DNA from: Octopus vulgaris
Taxonomy: Eukaryota
Length of the DNA: 64,000 nucleotides
Assembly (NCBI GenBank): GCA_951406725.2
Contig: OX597833.1
Location: 19,282,001-19,346,000 of the forward strand
Direction: 5' to 3'
Shown here: piece by piece, positions 4,224 to 46,376 of the stretch
Position numbering within the stretch: the stretch's first letter is position 1
Layout of the letters: each line of letters begins with the position of its first letter
The notes under the pieces: generated by a model
The model's input: only the letters and a program-made list of their open reading frames with translations
Database searches by the model: none
Told to the model about the DNA's origin: nothing
Program-made: the position numbers and the translations under genes

Positions 4224-4529
4224 GCAATTCAATATATTTTGATTACAGGGGAAGAGATGAGAGAGACAGGTGGGTGTAGAAATAAATGAACATGAGTTTA
4301 TGACTAAAATGCTTTGTAAAAATAAATACTTTAATACTCAGAAAAAGATGTCAGCCTTCATGTTAAAAAAAAAAGCAGTAAAAAGGTATAATTGAATATT
4401 TATATAAGTAAATAAGAAAGCATGCATGCATGCATTTATCCATCAATCAATCAATCAAAGTGCAGTAGCTGCAGCAAAGTTATAATTTGAAAGGGAAACG
4501 GATAAGGTGAAAGGAGTGGATAGCATGAG

Positions 4530-6304
4530 TTATCGTTGGGTATCTAATGATTTGGGCTGCCAGACTGGGGCTGTTGATTTAGGAAGTGCTGGCCGATTCC
4601 GAATGATATCTGCGGCTTTTTCAGCAAGCATACAAGTCGGACCGTTTAAGTTGCCACTGACTACACTGGGCATGATTGAGGCATCTACGACACGAAGATT
4701 CTCAATTCCATAGACTTTAGTGTCAGGACCGACCACAGCCATATTATCTGATGGATCTCCCATCTTGCAGGTACAACATGGGTGATAGTTACTGTCAGAC
4801 TTCTGACGGATAAATGCATCGATTTGTTTATCACTTTGGACATTGGGACCAGGAGCTAGTTCCTCACCTCTATAAGGATCAAAAGCTTTCTGTGCAAATA
4901 TCTCTCTTGAGAGTTTGACATTATCTCTCATATCTGCTACATCTTGTTCGGTTGTAAGGTAGTTAGCAACTATAATTGGATGAACCTTAGGGTCTTTAGA
5001 CTTCAATTTCAAATAGCCTTTACTTGTAGGTCTCATAGGACCCACATAAAACTGATAAGCATGACATGGGCCTGCTTTGCGACCATGATCATCCAAAGCA
5101 GATGGCAGAAAGTGGAATTGAATATCTGGATGTTCTACACCAGGTCTACTACGAATGAAACCTCCTGTTTCAAAATGAGATGTAGCACCATCACCTGTAG
5201 ATGTCAGAAACCATTGAAGTCCAATTTTAATCATGACATGTGGAAACTTCCATTGCGCTTTGTACAATGTGATTGGTTTAAGACATTTCTGTTGTAAGCA
5301 GACTACAAGATGGTCCTGAAGATTTGAGCCTACGCCAGGTAAATGATTAACAATTGGAATGTCCAGTTTTTTAAGGTCATCAGCATTGCCAATACCAGAA
5401 AGCATGAGAAGTTGTGGGGAATTGATAGCACCACCACTTAGAATCACTTCCTTGTTGGCCCTTACTTGGTGAATAACACCTTTCTGTTCGTACTCAATGC
5501 CAACTGCTTTGTTACCTTCGAAAAGGATCCTCCTGGCAAATGCATTTACTTCAGTGTCTAGGTTTGGTCTTTTTAACGACTTCCTCAGGTAAGCACTAGC
5601 TGTACTCCACCTCTTACCCTTGTGAACAGTCATGTCCATCCAACCAAATCCTTCTTGCTGGTAGCCATTCATATCATCGGTGAATGGGTAACCAGCTTGA
5701 ACACCAGCATCAATGAAAGCCTGGTGCAGCTCGTTATTAGACTTACCCTGAGATACATGCAAGGGCCCTTCTCCTCCCCGATATTCATCAGGACCCAGTT
5801 CATGTGTCTGAGATTTACGGAAATAAGGTAAACAGTCTGCATATGACCAGTTCAAAGCCCCTTCCTTTTCCCATCGGTCATAATTAAGAGCATGACCCCG
5901 AATATACACCATTGCATTTAGAGAAGATGACCCACCCCAAACACGGCCCCTTGGCCAATACATTACACGGTTGTCCATGCCTCTCTCCGGTTCTGTCATG
6001 TAGTACCAATTATATTTATCATCACATAGGTTGTATATCAGAGCTGCAGGCATGTGGATCTTCCAAGTATAGTCCTTTGGACCAGCTTCCAATAGAAGTA
6101 CAGTATTGTCAGCATCTTCTGTAAGGCGATTACTGAGGACACACCCTGCAGACCCTGCCCCAACAACAACGTAACTATATTCCTTGGTGGCTGTCACTGA
6201 GTCTTTTGAAGATGTACTAAAATAACGACCAGTCGATTGGGTGCCTGAGAAAGGAGGTCGATGATGGCAGTGGGCAGTCAACATACCAGGGTTTATCGGC
6301 AGGG
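4530..6304 (-). CDS. CHDH: Terminal GMC exon copy C: intact, active-site-diverged choline dehydrogenase-like paralog
   Basis: Open frame, 1775 nt, same acceptor. About 26 aa differences from A: LQDHLE to LQDHLV, SAYHP to SNYHP, QVHV to QFYV. Catalytic His (YHP) and Asn (GNLN) are retained. Confidence 0.9.
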
Positions 6305-6624
6305 CTAGAGGGTAAGAGAAAGATGAATACAAAGTAGGATATAGTAGTATAAATACAGCAGATAACAGTTATATATAAACTCACTATTAAAAGCAGACAA
6401 ACAGGTAATTTGATAACTTCTTCCAGGACCAAGATTAGAAATTTAAGGGAAAGGGACAGTTGGTTATATCAACCCCAGTAATTTACTAGTACCTATTTTA
6501 TGAACCACGCAAAGAACGAAAAAGGAAAAGCATATGATGTGAACTCAAAATATAAAGTGTCATGTTTAAAAATGAAGGAGCATGGCCTTATGATTAGGGT
6601 GTTGTACTCGCGATTCTGAATACC

Positions 6625-6852
6625 TATTTCTTTACTAACCACAAAGGGCCAAACACAGAGGGGACAAACAAGGACAGACAAATGGATTAAGTCGATTACA
6701 TCAATGCCAGTGCGTAACTGGTACTTAATTTATTCACCCCGAAAGGATGAAAGGCAAAGTCGACCTCGGCGGAATTTGAACTCGGAATGTAACGGCAGAC
6801 GAAATACCGGTAAGTATTTCGCCCGGCGTGCTAACATTTCTACTAGCTCGCC
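6625..6852 (-). mobile_element. SINE (family B) insertion with 14-bp target-site duplication cgattctgaatacc
   Basis: TSD at 6611-6624 and 6853-6866; empty site in the paralogous flank at 10229-10242. Confidence 0.92.
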
Positions 6853-7156
6853 CGATTCTGAATACCAGTCAAATTGTAGAGTTTACTGGGTACTTTTTAC
6901 AAGTCACCAGCATTAGTGAGGTCACCAAGAGCTTGCTTGTACATGGTTGTTTGTGTGAATGTGTTTGTATTTTCCTCATCTTCACATGTGTTCACTTGCT
7001 AGTTTCTAAGCAATGGCTTCACTGATGGTATCATTTGCTTGTAGTTCACTGCAAAAGCATGTACAGGATTCTTTTTCAGTTCTATATTTAAGAGATGAGG
7101 AATTATGTACATTATTTACATTTGACGGATATTTGTCCTCATCTTGTTTGTCATTA

Positions 7157-7200
7157 ACACAACGTTTTGGCTGATATACCCTCCAGCTTTCATCAGGTGT
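7157..7200 (-). ncRNA. Degenerate minimal type-I hammerhead ribozyme motif in a Penelope-like repeat (copy C flank)
   Basis: acac-CTGATGA-stem II (gctg/cagc)-[A]AAAC-GTT-gtgt; the G of GAAA is mutated. Confidence 0.45.
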
Positions 7201-7527
7201 CTTGGGGAAATTTCGAACCTGGGTTCTCATTCCTAAGGTATTTTTCGATGTTATTATTATTGTTATTGTTCAGGTTACTGCTTGGAATCAAACTCAGAAC
7301 CTTGGGGTTAGTAGCCCGCGCTTTAACCACTACTCCATATGCTTTTTGTTTGGAAGATTAGGTGATAATTGTCTCACATGGAAGCAAATGGAGGCTGGGC
7401 AACAGGAAGAGCATCTAGCCATGAAAATCTCAGTCCCAACAATGACAACTGAGAGTGGTGCAACAGTCAGAGATAAGACTGAATGACTCTTAAAACTTTA
7501 AGGTCTCTGCACAAGAGACATTGTTTA

Positions 7528-7933
7528 TGGCGCAGGAGTGGCTGTGTGGTAAGTAGCTTGTTTACCAACCACATGGTTCCGGGTTCAGTCCCACTGCATG
7601 GCACCTTGGGCAAGTGTCTTCTACTATAGCCTCGGGCTGGCCAAAGCCTTGTGAGTGGATTTGTTAGACGGAAACTGAAAGAAGCCCGTCGTATATATGT
7701 ATATATATATAAGCATGTGTGTATTTGTGTGTCTGTGTTTGTCCCACTAGCATTGCTTGACAACCGATGCTGGTGTGTTTATGTCCCCGTAACTTAGCGG
7801 TTCGGCAAAAGAGACCGATAGAATAAGTACTGGGCTTACAAAAGAATAATTCCCGGGGTCGAGTTGCTCGATTAAAGGCGGTGCTCCAGCATGGCCACAG
7901 TCAAATGACTGAAACAAGTAAAAGAGTAAAAGA
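7528..7933 (+). mobile_element. tRNA-derived SINE family A (ggcgcaggagtggctgtgtggtaag... internal TA/TG tract ... gtaaaaga tail)
   Basis: High-copy in the window: also 10906-11338, 11744-12168(-), 16715-17418(-, interrupted), 19561-19950, 23469-23873, 38753-39160, 46605-46996, 48836-49226, 57290-57645(-), 63098-63522. Confidence 0.9.
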
Positions 7934-8074: not shown

Positions 8075-8181
8075 CAATTAGAATACATTGGTTGCTGCAT
8101 AGCAGCAAAGTTATAATCCTTTAGACAAGAGAAAAGAAAACATAACATGAAAGGGAGTGAAAGGAGTGGGGATAGCATGAG

Positions 8182-9956
8182 TTATCTTTGGGTATCTAAT
8201 GATTTGGGCTGCCAGACTGGGGCTGTTGATTTAGGAAGTGCTGGCCGATTCCGAATGATATCTGCTGCTTTTTCAGCAAGCATGCAAGTCGGACCGTTTA
8301 AGTTGCCACTGACTACACTGGGCATGATTGAGGCATCTATGACATGAAGATTCTCAATTCCATAGACTTTAGTGTCAGGACCGACCACAGCCATATTATC
8401 TGATGGATCTCCCATCTTGCAGGTACAACATGGGTGATAGGCACTGTCAGACATCTGACGGATAAATGCATCGATTTGTTTATCACTTTGGACATTGGGA
8501 CCAGGAGCTAGTTCCTCGCCTCTATAAGGATCAAATGCTTTCTGTGCAAATATCTCTCTTGAGAGTTTGACATTATCTCTCATATCTACTACATCTTGTT
8601 CGGTCGTAAGGTAGTTACCAACTATAACTGGATGAACCTTAGGGTCTTTAGACTTCAATTTCATATAGCCTCTACTTGTAGGTCTCATAGGACCCACATG
8701 AACTTGATAAGCATGACATGGGCCTACTTTGCGTCCATGATCATTAACAGTAGATGGTAGAAAGTGGAACTGAATATCTGGATGTTCTACACCAGGTCTG
8801 CTGCGAATGAAACCTCCAGATTCTAAATGAGATGTAGCACCATCACCTGTAAAAGCCAGAAACCATTGAAGTCCAGTTTTGATCATGACATGTGGAAACT
8901 TCCATTGCGCTTTGTACAATGTGATTGGTTTAAGACATTTCTGTTGAATATAGACTTCAAGATGATCCTGAAGATTTGAGCCTACACCAGGTAAATGGTT
9001 GACAATTGGAATGTCCAGTTTTTTAAGGTCATCAGCATTGCCAATACCAGAAAGCATGAGAAGTTGTGGGGAATTGATAGCACCACCACTTAGAATCACT
9101 TCCTTGTTGGCCCTTACTTGGTGAATAACACCTTTCTGTTCGTACTCAATGCCAACTGCTTTGTTACCTTCGAAAAGGATCCTCCTGGCAAATGCATTTA
9201 CTTCAGTGTCTAGGTTTGGTCTTTTTAACGACTTCCTCAGGTAAGCACTAGCTGTACTCCACCTCTTACCCTTGTGAACAGTCATGTCCATCCAACCAAA
9301 TCCTTCTTGCTGGTAGCCATTCATATCATCGGTGAATGGGTAACCAGCTTGAACACCAGCATCAATGAAAGCCTGGTGCAGCTCGTTATTAGACTTACCC
9401 TGAGATACATGCAAGGGCCCTTCTCCTCCCCGATATTCATCAGGACCCAGTTCATGTGTCTGAGATTTACGGAAATAAGGTAAACAGTCTGCATATGACC
9501 AGTTCAAAGCCCCTTCCTTTTCCCATCGGTCATAATCAAGAGCATGACCCCGAATATACACCATTGCATTTAGAGAAGATGACCCACCCCAAACACGACC
9601 CCTTGGCCAATACATTACTCGGTTATCCATGCCTCTCTCCGGTTCTGTCATGTAGTACCAATTATATTTATCATCACATAGGTTGTACTTCAGAGCTGCG
9701 GGCATGTGGATCTTCCAAGTATAGTCCTTTGGACCAGCTTCCAATAGAAGTACAGTATTGTCAACATCTTCTGTAAGGCGATTACTGAGGACACACCCTG
9801 CAGACCCGGCCCCAACAACAATGTAACTATAATCCTTGGTGGCTGTTACTGAGTCTTTTGAAGATGTACTAAAATAACGACCAGTTGATTGGCTGCCTGA
9901 GAAAGGAGGTTGATGATGGCAGTGGGCAGTCAACATACCAGGGTTTATCAGCAGGG
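8182..9956 (-). CDS. CHDH: Terminal GMC exon copy B: intact duplicate of the choline dehydrogenase exon
   Basis: Open frame, same 1775-nt length and same acceptor as copy A. About 18 aa differences from A by manual comparison, including PAAL-M to PAAL-K. Confidence 0.9.
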
Positions 9957-10532
9957 CTAGAGGGTAAGAGAAAGATGAATACAAAGTAGGATATAGTAGT
10001 ATAAATACAGCAGACAACATTTATAAATAAGCTCACTATTAAAAGCAGACAAATAGGTAATTAAGGGAAAGGGACAGTTGGTTATACCAACCCCAGTAAT
10101 TTACTAGTACCTATTTTATGAACCACGCAAAGAAGGAAAAAGGAAAAGCGTATGATGTGAACTCAAAATATAAAGTGTCATGTTTAAAAATAAAAAGTCA
10201 TGGCCTTGTGATTCGGTTGTTGTACTCCCGATTCTGAATACCAGTCAAATTATAGAGTTTACTGGGTACTTTTTACAAGGCACCAGCATTAGTGAGGTCA
10301 CCAAGAGCTTGCTTGTACATGGTTGTTTGTGTGAATGTGTTTGTATTTTCCTCATCTTCACATGTGTTCACTTGCTAGTTTCTAAGCAATGCCTTCACTG
10401 ATGGTATCATTTGCTTGTAGTTCACTGCAAAAGCATGTACAGGATTCTTTTTCAGTTCTATATTTAAGAGATGAGGAATTATGTACATTATTTACATTTG
10501 ACGGATATTTGTCCTCATCTTGTTTGTCATTA

Positions 10533-10576
10533 ACACAACGTTTTCGCTGGTATACCCTCCAGCTTTCATCAGGTGT
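10533..10576 (-). ncRNA. Minimal type-I hammerhead ribozyme motif in a Penelope-like repeat (copy B flank)
   Basis: acac-CTGATGA-aa-gctgg-agggtata-ccagc-GAAA-acgtt-gtgt; stems I and II pair and stem III is palindromic. Confidence 0.55.
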
Positions 10577-10905
10577 CTTGGGGAAATTTCGAACCTGGGT
10601 TCTCATTCCTAAGGTATTTTTCGATGTTATTATTATTGTTATTGTTCAGGTTACTGCTTGGAATCAAACTCGGAATCTTGGGGTTAGTAGCCTGCGCTCT
10701 TAACCACTACGCCATATGCTTTTTGTTTGGCAGATTAGGTGATAATTGTCTCATATGGAAGCAAATGGAGGCTGGGCAACAGGAAGAGCATCTAGCCATG
10801 AAAATCTCTGTCCCAACAACGACAACTGAGAGTGGTGCAACATTCAGAGATAAGACTGAATGACTCTTAAAACTTTAAGGTCTCTGCACAAGAGACCTTG
10901 TTTAT

Positions 10906-11070
10906 GGCGCAGGAGTGGCTGTGTGGTAAGGAGCTAGTTTACCAACCACATGGTTCTGGGTTCAGTCCCACTGCGTGGCACCTTGGGCAAGTGTCTTCTA
11001 CTATAACCTCGGGTCGACCAAAGCCTTATGAGTGGATTTGTTAGACAGAAACTGAAAGAAGCCCGTCGTA

Positions 11071-11120
<50 letters not shown>

Positions 11121-11338
11121 TGTGTGCATTTGTGTGTCTGTGTTTGTCCCCCTAGCATTGCTTGACAACTGATGCTGGTGTGTTTATGTCCCCGTTACTT
11201 AGCAGTTCGGCAAAAGAGACCGATAGAATAAGTACTGGGCTTACAAAAGAATAAGTCCCGGGGTTGAGTTGCTCGACCAAAGGCGGTGCTCCAGCATGGC
11301 CACAGTCAAAGGGCTGAAACAAGTAAAAGAGTAAGAGT
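10906..11338 (+). mobile_element. SINE family A copy marking the end of the B/C duplicated unit
   Basis: Paralogous to 7528-7933; similarity between the two units stops after its tail. Confidence 0.9.
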
Positions 11339-26678: not shown

Positions 26679-28453
26679 TTATCGTTGGGTATCTAATGAT
26701 TTGGGCTGCCAGACTGGGGCTGTTGATTTAGGAAGTGCTGGCCGATTCCGAATGATATCTGCTGCTTTTTCAGCAAGCATGCAAGTTGGACCGTTTAAGT
26801 TGCCACTGACTACACTGGGCATGATTGAGGCATCTACGACACGAAGATTCTCAATTCCATAGACTTTAGTGTCAGGGCCGACCACAGCCATATTATCTGA
26901 TGGATCTCCCATCTTGCACGTACAAGATGGGTGATAGGCACTGTCAGACATCTGACGGATATATGCATCGATTTGTTTATCACTTTGGACATTGGGACCA
27001 GGAGCTAGTTCCTCACCTCTATAAGGATCAAATGCTTTCTGTGCAAATATCTCTCTTGAGAGTTTGACATTATCTCTCATATCTACTACATCTTGTTCGG
27101 TTGTAAGGTAGTTAGCAACTATAACTGGATGAACCTTAGGGTCTTTAGACTTCAATTTCATATAGCCCCTACTTGTAGGTCTCATAGGACCCACATGAAC
27201 TTGATAAGCATGGCATGGGCCTACTTTGCGTCCATGATCATTAACAGTAGATGGCAGAAAGTGGAATTGAATATCTGGATGTTCTAAACCAGGTCTACTG
27301 CGAATGAAACCTCCAGATTCTAAATGAGATGTAGCACCATCACCTGTAAAAGTCAGAAACCATTGAAGTCCAATTTTGATCATGACATGTGGGAACTTCC
27401 ATTGCGCTTTGTACAATGTGATTGGTTTAAGACATTTCTGTTGAATATAGACTTCAAGATGATCCTGAAGATTTGAGCCTACGCCAGGTAAATGATTAAC
27501 AATTGGAATGTCCAGTTTTTTAAGGTCATCAGCATTGCCAATACCAGAAAGCATGAGAAGTTGTGGGGAATTGATAGCACCACCACTTAGAATCACTTCC
27601 TTGTTGGCCCTTACTTGGTGAATGACACCTTTCTGTTCGTACTCAATGCCAACTGCTTTGTTACCTTCGAAAAGGATCCTCTTGGCAAATGCATTTACTT
27701 CAGTGTCTAGGTTTGGTCTTTTTAACGACTTCCTCAGGTAAGCACTAGCTGTACTCCACCTCTTACCCTTGTGAACAGTCATGTCCATCCAACCAAATCC
27801 TTCTTGCTGGTAGCCATTCATATCATCGGTGAAGGGGTAACCAGCTTGAACACCAGCATCAATGAAAGCCTGGTGCAGCTCATTATTAGTCTTACCCCGA
27901 GATACATGCAAGGGCCCTTCTCCTCCCCGATATTCATCAGGACCCAGTTCATGTGTCTGAGATTTGCGGAAATAAGGTAAACAGTCTGCATATGACCAGT
28001 TCAAAGCCCCTTCCTTTTCCCATCGGTCATAATCAAGAGCATGACCCCGAATATACACCATTGCATTTAGAGAAGATGACCCACCCCAAACACGGCCCCT
28101 TGGCCAATACATTACTCGGTTGTCCATGCCTCTTTCCGGTTCTGTCATGTAGTACCAATTATATTTATCATCACATAGGTTGTACATCAGAGCTGCGGGC
28201 ATGTGGATCTTCCAAGTATAGTCCTTTGGACCAGCTTCCAATAGAAGTACAGTATTGTCAGCATCTTCTGTAAGGCGATTACTGAGGACACACCCTGCAG
28301 ACCCGGCCCCAACAACAACGTAACTATATTCCTTGGTGGCTGTCACTGAGTCTTTTGAAGATGTACTAAAATAACGACCAGTCGATTGGGTGCCTGAGAA
28401 AGGAGGTCGATGATGGCAGTGGGCAGTCAACATACCAGGGTTTATCGGCAGGG
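26679..28453 (-). CDS. CHDH: Terminal GMC exon copy A (proximal): choline dehydrogenase domain with canonical active-site motifs
   Basis: GAGSAG FAD motif, [37 protein letters not shown]. Acceptor tctttctcttaccctctag|CC is phase 1; a second in-phase acceptor ttctcag|GC lies at 28393. Stop is TAA. Confidence 0.95.
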
Positions 28454-36661: not shown

Positions 36662-39600
36662 CACTCTTTACTCTTTTACAGTTATTTGACTGCAGCCATG
36701 CTGGAGCACCGCCTTTAGCTGAGCAAATTGACTCCAGGACTTATTCTTTGTAAGCCTAGTACTTATTCTATCGTTCTCTTTTGCCAAACTGCTAAGTTAT
36801 GGGTATGTAAACACACCAGTATCGGTTGTCAAGCGATGTTGGGGAGATAAATACAGACACACAAACAAACATAATATATATATATATATAGGTGTACGTT
36901 AGTTTAACAGTAGCACGCTTGCCACGAATACATAGACATGTGGGTTCGCATTCCATACATACGGCAACCCCTACTTTTTTCTGTTGAGGGCCTATATGCA
37001 CCAACATTAGACTATTTGCCTTAGTCAATGCACGGTGATCGCTTATAAAAAATATTATCATTATTCACACACACACACACGTATGTATATATAGGTATAT
37101 TTATGCATATATTCTTGTCATTTAATGTCCAGGTTCCATGCTTGTATGGGTTGGACCGTTTGACAGGATCCGATATGTCCAAGGACTGCATTATGCTTCA
37201 ATGTCTGCTTTAGCATGGTTTCTAAGGTTGGATGCCCTTCCTAATGCCAACCACTATAAAACTTGGACTGCATGCTTTTTTTTTGAGCCACCTGCACTAT
37301 AAATACACATATACGCGCATGCACACACACTCATGTATTATGTTTCTTTGCGTGTAATTATGTAATAGTCATATGGAATTAGGAGATCACACAACTGTTG
37401 ATTTAACGCAAGGAAAGTCCTGTGGTCATCAAATATGTCCCTTCAGATCTCAAACACTCAAATTACGTACGTACATATATATATATAAAAGCAAATATAT
37501 GTTACATCTATAAACAAATGTTACATGTTTCTTTATATATGTGTATGACTTATTTGTTTATATGTACAGGTAACATATAAAAGAATGTTATATATACACA
37601 AGAATATAGATATATGTAACAAATACATAATAAAAAGAAATATATAAAGAAATATGTTACATATAGAGAGAGAAAAAGGGGGAGAGAGAGAAAATGGGAG
37701 GGAAAGCGAGAGCGAGAATGAATTTCATTATTCAACGACATAGTAAATGCATCGTCAGGTTATTCAATCATTACCTTTTTTGTTGGAGGGCTGAGGAGAT
37801 TTGATAATTTTAATGTCAGAGACTGGATCAAGAAGGTCCCAGGCAGTGGGTAGTATGTGATCAGCGTGGGGTGCAAGCTCAGCTTTCGAACCAGTGCCAC
37901 TAAGAACCCCAATGCTTGCCTGTACATGGGCCTTTTTTCCAGAGTTGAGGTTTTTAGCACAGTCACTCACCACTATTGCCTCTGAAGGGGTGACACCCAG
38001 TTCATTACAGATCAAGGATGTTGCGTTGACTTCGGAGTTGCTGTCGTCTCCACACACCATCATATCCACATACTTCATTAAGCTGAATCGGTCGAGTATC
38101 TTGAAGGTTTCCTCGCGTGCATCTTGTGACATGATAGCAATCTTGATTTTATTTTGCTTCAAAGTTTTGAAAAGATGCTGAAGGTCTCCCAGAACTTTCA
38201 GATCTCCATACAATGAGTTCTTACAGTCTTTCCATGCCTGATTAACAGTCACTAATGATTCTTCATAACCAAGACCTTGTTCTCGAAGAAGTGACTTTAG
38301 AGCATCTTTAATCTCGGCTTTGGGACGTTCCGCAAGGATACCATGCTTCACCTTAAGAGATATTTTACAAATTCCAAGGCGTGAATAAACCTCTTCCATT
38401 AGTTCCATGTGTGTTAGTTCTTCGAGCCTGCAATGAAAAAACAAAGAAATCTTGTATTGTAATTAATAGTTTCAAATTTTGGCACAAGGCCAGCAAATTT
38501 CAAGGAAGGGGCAAATTAATTACATCAATCCCAGTGTTCAACTGGTAATTTATCAACCCCGAAAAGATGAAAGGCAAAGTCGACCTTGGTGGAATTTGAA
38601 CTCAGATCGTAAAGACAGACAAAATACCACTAAGCATTTTACCCGGTGTGCTGACAATTCTGCCAGCTCGCTGCCCTAATGTTGCATATAATTAATGTTA
38701 ACAAATATATAACAGAAGAAAATAGTTTGAAAGCAACCTTCTTATAGTTAAAGCAGGAGTGGCTGTGTGGTAAGTAGCTTGCTTACCAACCACATGGTTC
38801 CGGGTTCATTCCCACTGCATGGCACCTTGGACAAGTGTCTTTTACTATAGCCTCGGGCCGACCAAAGCCTTGTGAGTGGATTTGGTAGATGGAAACTGAA
38901 AGAAGCCTGTCGTATATATGTACATGTGTGTGTGTATGTATGTATATATATGTGTGTGTGTGTGTGTGTGTTTGTCTCCACAACATCGCTTGACAAATGA
39001 TGCTGGTGTGTTTACATCCCTGTAACATAGCGGTTAAGCAAAAGAGACCGATAGAATAAGTACTAGGCTTACAAAGAATAAGTCCTGGGGTCGATTTGCT
39101 TGACTAAAGGCGGTGCTCCAGCATGGCCGCAGTCAAATGACTGAAACAAGTAAAAGAGTAAATCTAACTTCATACCAGTCTTATTTCACAGTTAAGGAAA
39201 AGTTCTTAGATGTTTTTGTCTTAGATTTCATTATAATTTTCTCTAGGTATTTTTTGTTTCGTTTTCTTTGTTTTCTTTTATCACATTGCTAATACACATG
39301 CTAATCTGTTGCATATTACTAACACAGATATGTAGCACATATACGCAAAAAAAAAAAAATCGAAAAAGAAAAACCCAAACAACTTCGTATGTAAATTGGT
39401 TCTCATATTTCTGTTTCTGCTGTTAGTCAAGCAAATATCTAAATAGTTTGGATTTTTGTGAAACAGTGTTTCACTTACATAGAAAAGTTCAGCAGCACTT
39501 TATGGGTGAAAAGAAAGGAAAAAATACAGTAATTGGATTGGTTTAGAGAAATGCTTGCTGAAAACTGTACAGCTAAGATAAGATCAAAAATGCTAGTTGC

Positions 39601-42600
39601 CGTAAGTGACAGAGGCAGAATAAGGAGAGGTTGGGAGAAGTAGGGTACGAACAAACCAGTATAGAAATATAGGAATACTAGCAGTATAGCCCGGCGTTGC
39701 TCGGGTTTGTTTTCTTTTCGACCCTTTAGAATTGGAATTTTTGAAAAGTAAAACTTTTGCATTATGTAGCTTGTTATTCTCTTTAAGTGAATATTTTTCT
39801 GGTTGAAATACACCAAAAAATGGTGACACACCAGTAAAAATATCGTAAAAAATAGGGATTTTTCATAGAAAAAAAGCACCTTTTTGATGTCAATAATTTT
39901 TGGTCTTAACATGGTCCGATTTGAATATTTTCTTCTACGGAATGAAGAGTAAGCCTTCTATCATACTCTCAATTTTAGTCAACTTGCGCCGCAGGGTCTC
40001 AGAAGAGATAGTGTTAGTTGAAGGCTACCAAACCTGCCACACACAGACAGACAACTTTAGCTTTATATATAAAGATTATCAGACTTAAATTATTATTACT
40101 CTGTAAAAAGTGACACACTATTGAGTTGCCTGTTGGTATTAGCAGATCCAAACAAGCAATATTTGTATGAAAGAGTTGCAGGATTAAGATACCTACAGAG
40201 TGTGGTTTCTTGTGCAATCATGTAGTTCAATAATGACTTGTGTGGGAATTCGGAAGATGGAAGCAGTGTGGAAGACAATTGTATTTATGTGTGCATATAT
40301 GGGATTTGGACAAAATAATGGAAACACCTTAAGAATTCAACCAAATTTATTTTAATATGGGGCAGGACTGCCTTTGGCAGTAATTACAGCTTGAATTCTA
40401 CAAGGTATGGACTAGTATAAAGTTTGAATTGTTTCTAAAGGAATTTTTGATTAACACCAGTATAATAGTATAATACAGAATGCTGTGTGTGACTTTTACC
40501 TGAGAATGTACCTTAAGAATATAAAAATATAAAACAAAGCTATGTAGCTCTACAGGCCGACTTATGACCAGTCAGTCAGAACACCATTTGTGGTCATAAG
40601 TTGATGACGACCTGTATGTGTGTAAATACAAATAAGGTGGTGAGCTGGCAGAATCGTTAGCATGATGATGATATATCTGTCTTGCATACTATATCAAATG
40701 TGTTGTGCAAGAGAGACGACTGTGTTGGTATGGTCATTTGTTACTTATGGATGAGGACAGCTGTGTGAGGAAGTGCCACACCTTAACTGTGGAAGGAACC
40801 TGTGGAAGAGGTAGACCCAGGAAGACATGAGATGAGGTGTTTAAGCATGACCTTTGAACATTGGGCCTCTCAGAGGCAATGACAGAAGACTGAGACCTTA
40901 GGAGATATGCTGTGATTGAGAAGACACAGCAACTAAAGTGAGATCACAGCCATGGCTGATGCCAGTGTTACCTGTCCAGCACATTTAAGAGTACCCTTGA
41001 TGTTTGGGCGATATGATATGCTTGAGAAGACCTGTTGAGTCACTTAAAACCAAAATCGTAGCTGTGACCAGTACCCACTGACTGGATCCTGCTCTGGTGG
41101 CACATAAAATGCATCATCTGAATGTGATCGACACAAGTGTTCCTTGACTGCCGGTGGCATGTAAAAAACACCATTCGAACGTGGCTGATGCCAGTACTCG
41201 CTGACTGGCTCCTGTGCCTTTGGCACGTAAAAACCACTATCTGAACGTGGATGACGCCAGTGCCCCGTGACTGGCTCCCATGACGTTGGCATGTAAAAAA
41301 GTACCATCTGAACGCGATCAATGCCAGGCCCGCCTGACTGGCTCCTGTGCAGGTGGCACATAAAAAGCACCCACTACATTCTCAGAGTGGTCAGCATTTG
41401 GAAGGGCATCCAGCTGTAGAAACATTGCCAGATCAGAGTGTGGTTCAGCCGCTGGCTCTCTAGACCTCAGTCAAACTGTCCAACCCATGCCAGCATGGAA
41501 AACAGATGTTAAATGATGATGATGATGCCAACCCTTTTACAGAGTGTACTGGGTGCTTTTACACAGTACATTCTTTTGATACCGGCCTATCCAAGACTGC
41601 CTCTGCTTCTATGACAAACTTCCTGTCATAAAGTGATCCAAATCAAAACACTCAACCAAAATTTCATGTAAGTTTATGTTACAAGCACCAGCTTAATTAA
41701 AGACAGTTATTTTACTAAATTCTTCATTATTTTCCTAAATTAACTGAAACAAAAGCAGTGCATTTCAACAGAAATATGATAACAAAACGGTGGAAATATG
41801 TCCAATAACAAAACAAATTGACAATTTAAATAAAAGAATAAGAAATTAAAAAATACCTTTTAGCAATCTGTTTTGTCCAATTTAACCAAACAGCTTCGGA
41901 ACAGACTAAGGTACCATGCAAATCAATAATGGCTAACGAAACCTTCTGCTCAGGTAAATTTTCTCCAAGACTTTCCTCTTCCCCAAAATGACGTTCGATT
42001 AGGATGCGTTCAGTCGAATATACGTAACAGTCTTTCCATTCCTCTGTCGGCATTATCAATGGTAGCAAGTCCTGAACATTTTGAATGATATGGTCAGCAT
42101 TAGGCTGCAAATCAGTCTTACCGCCCACACCACTCAATACCCCAACACTTAAGCCAAGATTGGCTGCCCTCCCCATCATGACATCTACTTTAGTGTCTCC
42201 AACCATGACAGCCTCAGATGGATCCACTCCCAACTTCTTGCAAATCATCAAAGCATTATGTGGAGATGGTTTGGGTTCTGACAAAGCATCGTCTCCACAT
42301 ACGATGAGATCGACGTTTTTGGACAGGTTTAAGATTTCAAGAAGTTCTTCAGTAGGTTTTCTAGAATCTGCCGTGCAAATAGCAACTTTCACTTGCTTTT
42401 GTTTAAGAACTTTGAAAAGGATTTGCAAATCAGCCAAAGATCGCATTGTTTCTGGGTTCTTGTTGTCGCCATGATCTAAATTCTCATCAACTAGCTCTTC
42501 AGCTCGTTGCAATGAAAACCCTTCTTTTATCAATAACTTTATTAACTCTTCCTTAATTATTGGACCAGTTGCCTCTGCCAACAGCCCAGGTACTACTTTA

Positions 42601-45600
42601 TTGGAGAGTGTGCAGTAGCCCAACATATCATAGACTTTCTTCTGGAGCGGAAGACCAGTAGCATTTGATAACCTGTAAGGATAAAGGAATTATGTTCAAG
42701 TTCTTGATACAGTATGCTAACTACCCTCAAAAGGAACATAGCATTTAAAATATACAAGTGCTAGTTAATCTTTATTAGTAAGTAAAAAAAATAGCATCCA
42801 CCCAAACATTTGCTTTGGAAATATGGAAAAAAAATTTTTTTTTTAATTTTTAGAAAAAATTAATTGGTTGTGGGGAGGATGTGATGTCTTCACATACTGT
42901 TACATTAAAAACTTTATGCACTCAAGCAATTGGTTAGGAGTAAAAACTAGTCACAGATAGCAATCAAAATATTTATTTAACCCTTTAGCATTCAGATATC
43001 TTTGTCAAATGTATTGCTTATTTATTCACATTGTTTTGAATTAGTCATGCATTATTTTGTAGCTTTGAGATTTCAATGTTGTGTTTGTATATTTTTAGAA
43101 TGACATTGTAGGTTAAGTGTGAGAGATTATATCTAGTTAGTTTTAACATAAAACAGGTAGAATATTTGGGCCAGAATGGCAAGATTAAATGCTAAAGGGT
43201 TAAAATTTCAATGAAAACAAAACATTTGCCAGTTTTTGGTGTTGTAGTATGACACAACAGAAATATGCATACACTATATGGAGAGTGATTACAGTTTCCC
43301 CCCATTGCTACCATAGCCATCTAAGGTTAACCCTTTCGTTACTATATTTCTGACCAAAATACACCCCTCATCAGTTTCAATTAAATTCTAAAATAATCAT
43401 GAATCTAGGCTTGTTTCATTAAATAACTGTAACTTTTTTACTTATCAACATATTAATGTGATATTTGGAACATAATTAAAGAAAGGGTTCTTAATCAATT
43501 CTATTGCAAAACTTTTGTCTCAAAGTGACTTTAATTACAGGTAAATCCAGGTAAATTGAGCAAAAGGTAAAAATATTAAAATTTTAAAATGAGCAAAAGG
43601 TAAAAATATTAAAATTTTGTTTAAACATCACCATAGAAAATGAATCATCAGCTAATATTCAAATGGGTATGCAACAAAATTTTGATAAAGAAGAATTGTG
43701 CACATCACTATATCATCAGTTGAATTTAATGCACAACAGGTATACCATAAAGGTGGAATAAACTGAAATATTGGAATCCACCATAAGTTTGACCGAACTA
43801 AAGAAACCGGTCAAAAAATAATATACGGCTCTGGTTATGGTATGGAAGTGATAAATTCCAGACCACATCGTTCCCTAGGCCATGCTGACTAACATTATTT
43901 TCCCTGTAAAAAAAACAAAATCCACACACTACCTAGTATTTGCTTCACAAATTTTCCGAAATTTGAACCCCCATTTTGTGTTTGTTTACGTTCTGCGTAA
44001 GTTTGTTTCCGCATTGATCGCTTCAAACAATAACTTCCAGACCACATCATACCCTAAGCCATGCTGACTAACATTAGTTTCCCTGTATAAAAACTAAATC
44101 CACAACAGTACCCAGTATTTGTTTCACAAATTTTCCAATTCGGAATCAATGCTTGATAACATGAAACTCCTATCTATTTTCAAAGTTGAAGAAAAATCGA
44201 TGCCGAAAAAAATGTGGAAAAAAATCTCCCAAAATTCAGGGAATTAAAATTACACGTCGATCTTTGTACGAAACTGTAGATTAACTGTTTACGAAGTATA
44301 ATCACGTTTTCACGAATGTACTAAAGAGATTTGCTCTGATATTCTCATTTAAATATGAATTCGGGCGGCTTTGGGCGGTTTGGTAACGAAAGGGTTAAAA
44401 TTATTATTATGTTAACTTAAATAGACTTGTACAAACTGAATGTTCCATTAACACAACAGAATCGGTTACTTCTTACACAACTGACAAATGCATCAACTAG
44501 AAGTTGATCAACAGGTTAAAATCAAACTAACTTATAATGATTATTTTTTTTTTTTTTTAGGTTAGTTTATTGGAGACAGGAATGTATAGAATCGCACAGC
44601 TATTTAGGAATGGAAGATCCTCTTGAATTATTATCAAATACTACCAATAGTTTTGAGAAGTGCATCGTAAATTTGGTAAAGTCTTAAAAAGAAAAGAAAA
44701 TGTAATTTTTTTTTATGACAAAATAATGTTTTCCATTCCCTAACTGGCACCAATAAATTATTCCATATTAATCCTCCAAAAAATTATCAGATATATCAGA
44801 GTACTTCTGAACCATGGGCATGGTTTTTAAACAGATTTTCCAAGTAGCAGACAACCATACATTCTCACATCCACACGAGACATGATACATACTTACTTTT
44901 CAGCCAAATTCTTAGCCCAAGGTACCCACATCGACTGGAAGCAGATTAAAGTACCATCTTTGTCAAATATCACCAAAGACATCTTCTTCCGCTTGCTGGA
45001 GTCTTGTTTAGTGTTTGAAGTTTTGTCATCATTACGCTGCTTCTTTAGATTGGCTTGTGCAGCCGAACTGTAGAGCACCCTCTGACCTTGGTCTGCAACA
45101 CACCAACCCACATAACAACAACGACCCAAGGTGCATGAAGACACCAATCACTAACTAAACACCCTAAAATTATTATCTACAACATCTAGCTGGGAGGGGA
45201 ACAATGCGCTTTAAATATTAACACTACAAGTGTATTGTTTATGCTTTTCATAGTTAGACCTCTTTTTCTCTCTCTTCAACAATATTTAACTGAAAATTAC
45301 CAGTTTTTTTAATATATAAACATTTTAGGAAAAAACACAGTTGACAAGATAGAAGAAAAGTCTTAGAATGAACAACAAAAATAGCAAAACTTATTCTCAA
45401 AACTACACCAATACAAAGCATTCAATATTGTAGTTGCCTACTTAAACATTTACATTTTACAATCTGCTCATGGTGGAAACATGTCACCATGACTTTTATG
45501 TTAGCAATAAATAATAGATATTCATGCCATTGAATAAGAATTCAATAAAATTAATGGACAATTGAAATTCTAGAAGTATAAAACAACTAGAAAATTAAGC

Positions 45601-46376
45601 TTTATTACTCAGACTTGTCATGAGTTTAAAGCAAGTTTGTCACATTTTAGCGGATAAACTGCTAACTTGAAAAAATCTGTTACATGACTTTAACAATTAC
45701 AGAAATACAAAGTTTGAGAGAGAAAAAAAGTAGGAAACAAGGTGTAAATTATTATAGAAATAATTTTTGTAAGAATTTGTCATTGCAAAGTTATTTCATA
45801 ATCAAACAATCTTTTTCATTTAGATTTAAAACTGACCAAAAGAAAATAAATTTTTCTTTTTTTTTTTTTACAGAAATTCCAAAGATTTTCCTAAGTAAAT
45901 TAATAGCTAAATGTTGTAGATACATTTATTTAAATATGGATGCTAACATAACTACATAAAAAAACTGAGCTGTTCATCCATGATCCGTTCACTATTTAAT
46001 CCCAAAACACAGCAATTTATTGCCCAGACATAGCTATTCTTTCTCACCATACTGTCTCTACATAGGTGAGAGAACAGCAATGGAGGAAGAAGCAAAGAAC
46101 AATATTGAAGCATCATAATTTTAATATTTTATAATGCACAGCAAAATATTGCATTTCAATAATTGCTCATACTAATACACATACACACATACATATGCAA
46201 AAAACATATGTTCAAAGATTGGGTAAACCATACGGTAGCAAGTACATACCTGTAGAGGAAATCCTGCAGGCGCTTAAGACAGAGGCATCGGCCACAGCAG
46301 AACAGGAGCTGAGTCTTGACAAACTTTTGCTACGGCAACGAGATGTCAGCCTCAGAGCCTTAGGTAGATGCAACAT
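26679..46376 (-). CDS. CHDH: Spliced gene model: mitochondrial-targeted HAD-HAD-choline dehydrogenase (GMC oxidoreductase) fusion, ~1188 aa; exons 46250-46376, 44897-45092, 41857-42672, 37775-38427, 26679-28453
   Basis: All four introns have GT..AG ends with matching phases (1,2,2,1). Summed CDS is 127+196+816+653+1775=3567 nt = 1189 codons including TAA. HAD motifs and GMC motifs fall in one frame. Confidence 0.8.
29190..29534 (-). mobile_element. Internally deleted mariner element
   Basis: [28 protein letters not shown] matches the mariner YSPDLAPxD motif; TIR-like end tattgggctgtctggaaagttcgtgcc. Confidence 0.85.
29883..30377. repeat. Long inverted repeat (~220-bp arms 29883-30106 and 30157-30377, ~50-nt loop)
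   Basis: Arms read as reverse complements by eye, e.g. gatagacaaagaacatgctggc/gccagcatgttctttgtctatc. Confidence 0.92.
37775..38427 (-). CDS. Coding exon 4: rest of the degenerate HAD domain 2
   Basis: ORF 37764-38444. Acceptor tttttcattgcag|G; donor AAAAAG|gtaatg (phase 1). Paralogous to exon 3 ([14 protein letters not shown] vs [14 protein letters not shown]; GVLSGTG vs GVLSGVG; ADHI). Confidence 0.9.
39676..40075 (+). mobile_element. Helitron/Helentron-like non-autonomous repeat; related end inverted near 51995-52028
   Basis: 5' actagcagtatagcccggcgttgctcggg with short GC hairpin; 3' gctttatatataaagat end. Confidence 0.5.
40693..41526 (+). mobile_element. 5'-truncated RTE LINE: ORF2 C-terminus followed by a tandem-unit 3'UTR and (gat)n tail
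   Basis: Translates [22 protein letters not shown]...GRGRPRKT*, then continues into the repeat family of 18248-18643. Confidence 0.8.
41857..42672 (-). CDS. Coding exon 3: rest of HAD domain 1 (motif II ICTAD, motif III EPKP, motif [11 protein letters not shown]) and start of HAD domain 2 (IIDLHGTL)
   Basis: ORF 41826-42626 extends to acceptor ccttacag|G at 42672; donor AAAAG|gtattt. Length 816 nt, phase 2 to phase 2. Confidence 0.9.
43331..44394. mobile_element. Non-autonomous piggyBac-type element in intron 2
   Basis: TTAA flanks, 12-bp TIR ccctttcgttac/gtaacgaaaggg, and internal direct duplications (43558-43618; 43857-44135). Confidence 0.85.
44897..45092 (-). CDS. Coding exon 2: linker plus HAD domain 1 motif I (VIFDKDGTL)
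   Basis: ORF 44893-45147. Acceptor tgttgcag|AC is phase 1 and compatible with exon 1; donor GAAAA|gtaagt is phase 2. Contains the DxDGT motif. Confidence 0.8.

Follow-up and report, generated by a model that had tools for sequence, protein, structure and literature searches.

Three copies of the final exon of a choline dehydrogenase gene in octopus, one with changes at near-invariant pocket positions and a likely shift in substrate preference

Choline dehydrogenases (animal CHDH; bacterial BetA, TIGR01810; PDB 9LQ0) belong to the GMC family and have a catalytic His/Asn pair. Pocket positions E312, W331, H351, V464, H466 and N510 of Arthrobacter globiformis choline oxidase (PDB 2JBV) align with the octopus domain described here; this oxidase is a distant homolog, and its residue roles are carried over to choline dehydrogenase by analogy, as probable roles. 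According to excerpts of the published work, W331, H351, V464, H466 and N510 contact betaine and M62, V355, F357 and M359 form the gate (PMC10980864), N378, N462 and T463 are further residues of this kind (PMC10991250), and His466 and Glu312 are also treated in PMC12839357. In the same excerpts, E312 stabilizes the charge, and the crystal structure places it out of close contact with betaine (PMC10980864), and the cost of E312Q in choline binding is about 15 kJ/mol (PMC13736859).

In molluscs, one or two HAD domains precede the choline dehydrogenase domain in a fusion protein. This arrangement has a parallel in the yeast Arg5,6 tandem precursor, in which, as in the octopus fusion, two enzyme parts flank a linker with an R-2 motif and an aromatic residue at +1; the R-2 motif is the cut site of the mitochondrial processing peptidase (MPP) in the excerpts of PMC8734313. 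Unlike Arg5,6, the octopus gene is an animal gene encoding other enzymes, its cleavage is predicted, and its second enzyme is apparently swappable by exon choice. Also comparable are bivalve paralogs labeled ‘choline dehydrogenase, mitochondrial-like’ (Mytilus XP_052087822, Mercenaria P0033, Ruditapes P0041, Argopecten P0120 and Ylistrum P0148), which, like octopus copy C below, have a polar residue at position 499, have lost Tyr329, mostly carry Phe371 and occur beside a standard paralog. In contrast to C, they have separate origins and most have Asp327 and His413; several carry HAD domains of their own, whereas the octopus copies share upstream exons. An octopus choline dehydrogenase gene has been used as a brain cell marker, according to excerpts of PMC9795677. 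Our literature search, with subscription papers outside its scope, found no paper on the octopus copies, the HAD–GMC fusion or the bivalve paralogs, and no characterized bivalve paralog.

Three copies of one last exon

We analyzed a 64,000-nt stretch of the Octopus vulgaris genome (GCA_951406725.2, contig OX597833.1, 19,282,001 to 19,346,000; hereafter the window, in whose positions all coordinates are given). A, B and C each represent the last exon of a single HAD–HAD–choline dehydrogenase gene and are not whole-gene copies (Table 1). The preliminary description of this DNA had spoken of three copies, and their 584-aa frames are indeed intact, colinear and on the minus strand, but what was copied is one exon rather than a gene. 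Four upstream coding exons lie inside the window, and the donor at 37775 joined to the acceptor of A, B or C gives an in-frame protein of 1,188 aa in each case. A whole-genome search of O. vulgaris found only A, B and C and no fourth copy. The C-terminal part of O. vulgaris CAI9737432.1 is identical to A, the best PDB match of which is choline dehydrogenase (9LQ0, E 5e-183). The annotations of O. vulgaris and O. sinensis both list C as a 584-aa protein in its own right. C scores above the family cut-offs (TIGR01810, 752.1 bits against 732.1; PRK02106, 826.3 against 605) and has the GMC hallmarks, namely the FAD motif GAGSAG (GxGxxG), H501 and N545.

Several further features of the locus are recorded here. 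B and C lie within a tandem duplication of ~3.4–3.7 kb that includes flanking repeats (4507-7932 versus 8157-11337), and the likeness of this region to A stops ~90 bases upstream of the acceptor. Positions 17889-17776 (minus strand) match the first exon of the O. sinensis B model XP_036366616.1; CTG replaces ATG there, and no GT follows the last matching codon. Downstream of A, ~26186-26167 (minus strand) encodes EILTALL behind an AG, matching the end of the O. bimaculoides HAD-only isoform XP_014788186.1, and may serve as a short last exon with A skipped. Elsewhere in the genome (L004-L007, G000:C4:103.26-103.29 Mb) lies a separate GMC gene, which contains introns and is 45–62% identical in pieces.

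Table 1 Coordinates of the exons, motifs and pocket residues discussed, in positions of the window
Feature	Position	Strand	Remark
Copy C, last exon: linker and whole GMC (choline dehydrogenase-type) domain	4530..6304	-	stop ends at 4530; in-frame ATG at 6284
Copy B, last exon	8182..9956	-	ATG at 9936; pocket as in A except M83K, S503C
Copy A, last exon in annotated full-length proteins	26679..28453	-	ATG at 28433
Splice acceptor of C (pyrimidine tract and AG)	6305..6330	-	same in A and B; X1, X4 and X8 contig pieces end at 6306
Shared exon, 653 nt, second HAD domain	37775..38427	-	its donor is in frame with each of the three acceptors
Shared exon, 816 nt, first HAD domain and start of second	41857..42672	-	
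Shared exon, 196 nt; encodes HAD motif I, DKDGT	44897..45092	-	
First coding exon of the 1,188-aa form	46250..46376	-	Arg/Ser-rich, presequence-like by eye
RYFST in linker of C, predicted internal MPP site	6213..6227	-	
RYFST in linker of B	9879-9865	-	
RYFST in linker of A	28376-28362	-	
Residues 327-503 of C	4776..5306	-	21 of the 26 A/C differences
M83I (M83K in B)	6036..6038	-	A/B/C comparison; probably near gate residue Met62, by spacing only
E327V, equivalent to choline oxidase Glu312	5304..5306	-	GAA>GTA at 5306-5304
Y329C	5298..5300	-	Tyr in 149/171 homologs
L371F, aligned to Trp331	5172..5174	-	
V397L, approximately gate residue Phe357	5094..5096	-	ungapped count from His351
H413Y	5046..5048	-	His in 168/170 full homologs and 120/120 fragments
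A499N, equivalent to Val464	4788..4790	-	
His501, equivalent to catalytic His466	4782..4784	-	kept
Asn545, equivalent to Asn510	4650..4652	-	kept

Assembled contigs suggest that C is probably an alternative last exon and an expressed variant. A 3,409-nt contig from run X1 aligns to 4365-6306 with four differences and C bases at the diagnostic sites, and its alignment to the C locus ends at the splice acceptor. The remaining 1,469 nt (3,409 − 1,940) equal the 816 + 653 nt of two upstream exons (42672-41857 and 38427-37775), an exact match made by length in the single run, guessed to be RNA, of the four compared. The contig end and this length match are why we take C to be a probable alternative last exon; since A and C share their first 148 nt without a difference, assembly software has no means of phasing the two, and the join therefore depends on C being the main path in the X1 assembly. 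The terminal peptide of XP_014788186.1 downstream of A lends weak added support to the skipping of A. In run X8, one contig covers 5257-6306 and resembles A, while two short pieces, 4982-5129 (two differences) and 5108-5286 (none), resemble C. Contig cover was missing over B in X1, X2 and X4 and over most of C in X2 and X4, which we do not count as evidence. In the run search, 20 of 24 listed runs contain part of the stretch, none of them listed as RNA, and run shares near 0.45–0.49 were not used because A transcripts could produce them.

The linker encoded at the start of each copy carries a conserved motif that suggests a polyprotein cut in mitochondria. The pattern R-x-[FYL]-S-[TSAN], formulated after some linkers had been seen, occurs in 54 of 62 invertebrate fusions, against a mean of 1.8 and a maximum of 7 in shuffles. 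As in the octopus gene, HAD domains precede the GMC domain in the homologs. The second octopus HAD domain has DLHGT (~41935-41915, minus strand) where the first has DKDGT (44965-44945, minus strand) and may for this reason be catalytically inactive. No NCBIfam HAD family scored above its cut-off save generic HAD-IA/IIIA-type subfamilies, an ESM Atlas search for a clue to the HAD substrate returned only nameless bacterial HADs, and a plasmid search with the HAD gave four weak hits, all lacking annotation.

Pocket residues changed in copy C

Of the 584 residues, 26 differ between A and C (~96% identity), and 22 codons carry silent differences. The preliminary description had placed 21 of about 26 differences within some 177 residues, and a recount bears this out: 20 fall in L322–P502 (181 aa), and 21 when S503C is included (residues 327-503, 177 aa). 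All five motif changes quoted there are found in C, and A499N does need two base changes (GCC>AAC at 4790-4788). Uniform draws placed 21 of 26 differences in any 177-residue window once in 100,000 trials. The A–B pair is a fairer control, with dN of 0.014 inside and 0.012 outside the block. Silent A/C codons number 9 inside residues 327-503 and 13 outside (Fisher p 0.007). Six of the replacements (L383V, Y491F and S503C inside; R179Q, T182S and K251R outside) are common to B and thus not C-specific. Two others, V450A and D134N, are found neither in O. sinensis C nor in the X1 contig, which rules them out as fixed C changes and makes them either alleles or assembly-specific; D134 is invariant in the homologs (171/171) and is Asp in X1 and O. 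sinensis C, whereas C of this assembly has Asn.

Residue equivalences were taken from a HMMER alignment to 2JBV, counted residue by residue, and give E327=E312, L371=W331, H391=H351, A499=V464, H501=H466 and N545=N510. This alignment confirms the earlier proposals that C has lost the Glu312 equivalent (E327V) and changed the Val464 equivalent (A499N) and that it retains the catalytic pair, His501 and Asn545; His391 is also kept. The alignment is gapped around choline oxidase residues 351-378, so V397=F357 and H413=T376 are only approximate. Twelve pocket or gate residues of choline oxidase map within the pocket-block domain, and C is changed at four of these (p 0.035, tested against the rate of change in that domain). 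The earlier phrase ‘rebuilt substrate pocket’ is supported in part: changes are enriched at pocket and gate residues, but about half the changes are to states common in the family.

Which changes stand out was judged from 247 homologous proteins, 179 of which pass the filter (50% identity, spanning the domain), 171 of them from outside Octopus, and from the best 120 of 766 shorter homologs, mostly bacterial. At residue 327, Glu occurs in 159/171 and Asp in 10/171, so that the acid missing in C is present in 169/171; Val occurs in 0/171, and in 0/94 fragments. Ala499 occurs in 142 and Val397 in 153 of the 171 homologs, with Leu at 397 in none. The fragments have E327 in 94/94, Y329 in 95/96, H413 in 120/120 and A499 in 114/119. 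By contrast, K495 (70/171), L425 (94/170), A404 (50/171), I437 (53/170) and T373 (45/171) are common states in the homologs, as are F371 (78/120) and C503 (24/119) in the mostly bacterial fragments, and L371F, S503C, M495K and M425L were accordingly dropped as diagnostic. By these counts the diagnostic set of C is E327V, Y329C, H413Y and A499N, with V397L and M83I more weakly so; unlike choline dehydrogenases, C lacks the near-invariant Glu327, Tyr329, His413 and Ala499. Glucose oxidase has Asn at the place corresponding to 499, before Tyr-His. Other pocket variants (P0039, P0045, P0146, P0119, P0036, P0047 and P0113, with L, I, C or H at 329 and A or G at 499) come from oysters, another animal and amphioxus, an indication that the family often diversifies its pocket.

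Retention in octopus and parallel change in bivalves

All three copies are present in O. sinensis, the C protein of which (XP_029647501.1) shares 24 of the 26 A/C differences, the exceptions being D134N and V450A. Sixteen states are C-specific, in that they are absent from every A and B, and 15 of these lie in the pocket-block domain; all 16 recur unchanged in O. sinensis, as the way the set was defined requires. The two C proteins differ at seven residues with no C-specific state reverted, and no stop or indel is found in C of O. vulgaris or O. sinensis. Between the two species, A has 2 residue differences, C has 7 and B has 16, and B (8182-9956) may be a drifting copy or the one most often converted. 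In O. bimaculoides, a model with gaps (A0A0L8FP00) carries N499 but retains M495 and S503, and its sister model has A499; the single protein seen from Argonauta (P0124) is A-like. No further cephalopod C was found among the best 120 of the 766 shorter homologs, which are all at or below 70% identity.

By counting on the three paralogs, A–C dN/dS is 0.49–0.63 in the pocket-block domain and 0.12–0.14 outside, and the C-private value in the domain is 0.61–0.77. C-private changes comprise 19 replacements to 9 silent changes inside the domain and 1 to 5 outside; the latter ratio argues against neutrality (p 0.0035), and the inside–outside contrast has p 0.06. As a check on neutral decay, an outcome the preliminary description had considered, these figures give a divided answer. 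Outside the domain, a single private replacement against five silent changes makes decay unlikely; inside, dN/dS for C never exceeds 1 (0.49–0.77) and is indistinguishable from it (p 0.24), so no positive selection is demonstrated, and relaxation fits too. dS is also higher in the domain (0.115 versus 0.047 outside, p 0.027), and the informative sites are grouped into tracts (36 runs, p 0.00035), a pattern that fits gene conversion. Conversion that spares the pocket block is likely to have kept the FAD-binding part alike among the copies.

The same pocket sites have changed repeatedly in bivalves. We used a 55-row tree built without 14 pocket columns, its rows hand-picked from 126 and its traits also chosen after the states had been seen. 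A polar residue at 499 arises six times on this tree (five times in a 38-row analysis), in octopus C, venerid clams, mussels, two scallops and one further bivalve clade. Tyr329 is lost in six of six independent pairs with polar 499 (p 0.03), and these pairs have F371 in 5/6 and a residue other than Glu at 327 in ~5/6 (both p 0.06). One ancient paralog behind all variants is rejected by the AU test, since a single clade for 12 variants has p-AU 1.4e-4 with the pocket columns (residues 322-503, 38 rows, five changes) and is rejected without them too. The 329/499 pair could be packing compensation; that it arose more than once among bivalves suggests that mollusc metabolism has a real second substrate. 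Most bivalve variants keep Asp or Glu at 327, the acid being lost only in Argopecten P0120 and octopus C, and for this reason their substrate may stay cationic. The earlier proposal of neofunctionalization therefore holds in part: C states are kept in O. sinensis and have parallels in bivalves, but dN/dS lies below 1 and positive selection is not demonstrated.

Function of copy C

Judged from sequence, C would be a kept, probably expressed variant with a shifted substrate preference, a change of substrate being likely. Our preferred explanation, to which we give somewhat better than even credence, is that C, as an intact last-exon duplicate, replaces A in the spliced transcript and makes a working flavin dehydrogenase preferring an alcohol other than choline. 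The shared donor at 37775 would be joined to the acceptor of C, skipping A and B; the 1,188-aa precursor would enter mitochondria, where MPP would cut the linker at RYFST to free the dehydrogenase. His501 and Asn545 would retain the alcohol-to-aldehyde chemistry. Without Glu327 and Tyr329, the pocket would no longer offer charge and aromatic contacts to a trimethylammonium group, and Asn499 and Tyr413 would supply new hydrogen-bond partners. With those contacts lost and these partners gained, the likeliest substrate would be a primary alcohol that is uncharged and carries an additional polar group. The non-cationic alcohol proposed earlier keeps its basis in E327V, which is confirmed, but this part of the proposal depends on octopus E327V and Y329C alone because most bivalve variants keep the acid. 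Isethionate and sulfonates, considered because of K495, were dropped as substrates because Lys is the commonest state at that position.

Passage of the betA cut-off by C and the lack of close contact between E312 and betaine are two counterpoints to a substrate switch. In one alternative, C still oxidizes choline or a close cationic analog, and its pocket changes retune kinetics or the electron acceptor. In line with this, C passes that cut-off, His391, His501 and Asn545 are all kept, most bivalve variants have an acid at 327, F371 is a common bacterial state, and N398D puts a new acid near the entrance. Nevertheless, Val327 is unique to C among the 171 homologs and 94 fragments, Tyr329 and His413 are gone as well, and choline binding is weakened by E312Q in the excerpts of PMC13736859; we regard such retuning as rather unlikely. 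Relaxed selection on a redundant C, with the FAD part copied from A or B by conversion and the pocket drifting, would account for a domain dN/dS below and not different from 1, for the conversion tracts and for D134N at an invariant site in this assembly. However, the frame is free of stops and indels in both species, the 16 states are identical in O. sinensis, N499 recurs in the O. bimaculoides model, bivalves change the same sites together, a likely spliced contig carries C, and D134 is restored in X1 and O. sinensis, all of which make drift quite improbable.

A different question is whether C belongs to the HAD fusion at all. It could instead be a stand-alone one-exon gene, starting at ATG 6284, with the same changed pocket and with the linker as its mitochondrial presequence: C is annotated as a protein of its own in both species, its frame starts with a basic, Ser/Thr-rich stretch ending in RYFST, and A, with poly(A) hexamers behind it, sits between the shared exons and C. 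Yet the X1 contig departs from the genomic sequence at the acceptor, its remainder equals two upstream exons, and the acceptor of C is intact and in frame, so we hold this arrangement to be very improbable. Returning to C as a swapped last exon, a broader scheme can be put forward tentatively, as a possibility that we do not favor outright: molluscs may make a mitochondrial polyprotein of phosphatase-like domains and choline dehydrogenase, cut after import, and may repeatedly have evolved a second dehydrogenase for another alcohol, in octopus by exchange of the last exon.

If this is so, one octopus gene would offer a cassette of catalytic domains, and the finding would point to an undescribed metabolite route common to octopus and bivalves. 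It would be unusual for a metabolic enzyme to be diversified by way of a HAD fusion that has a conserved processing motif and whose catalytic last exon can be exchanged. The database label ‘choline dehydrogenase’, attached to all these proteins, may be wrong for C. More generally, A and C constitute a young and almost clean natural experiment: the enzymes share 96% identity and are set apart by some four changes at pocket sites that hardly vary in the family, which makes the specificity determinants of choline dehydrogenase directly testable.
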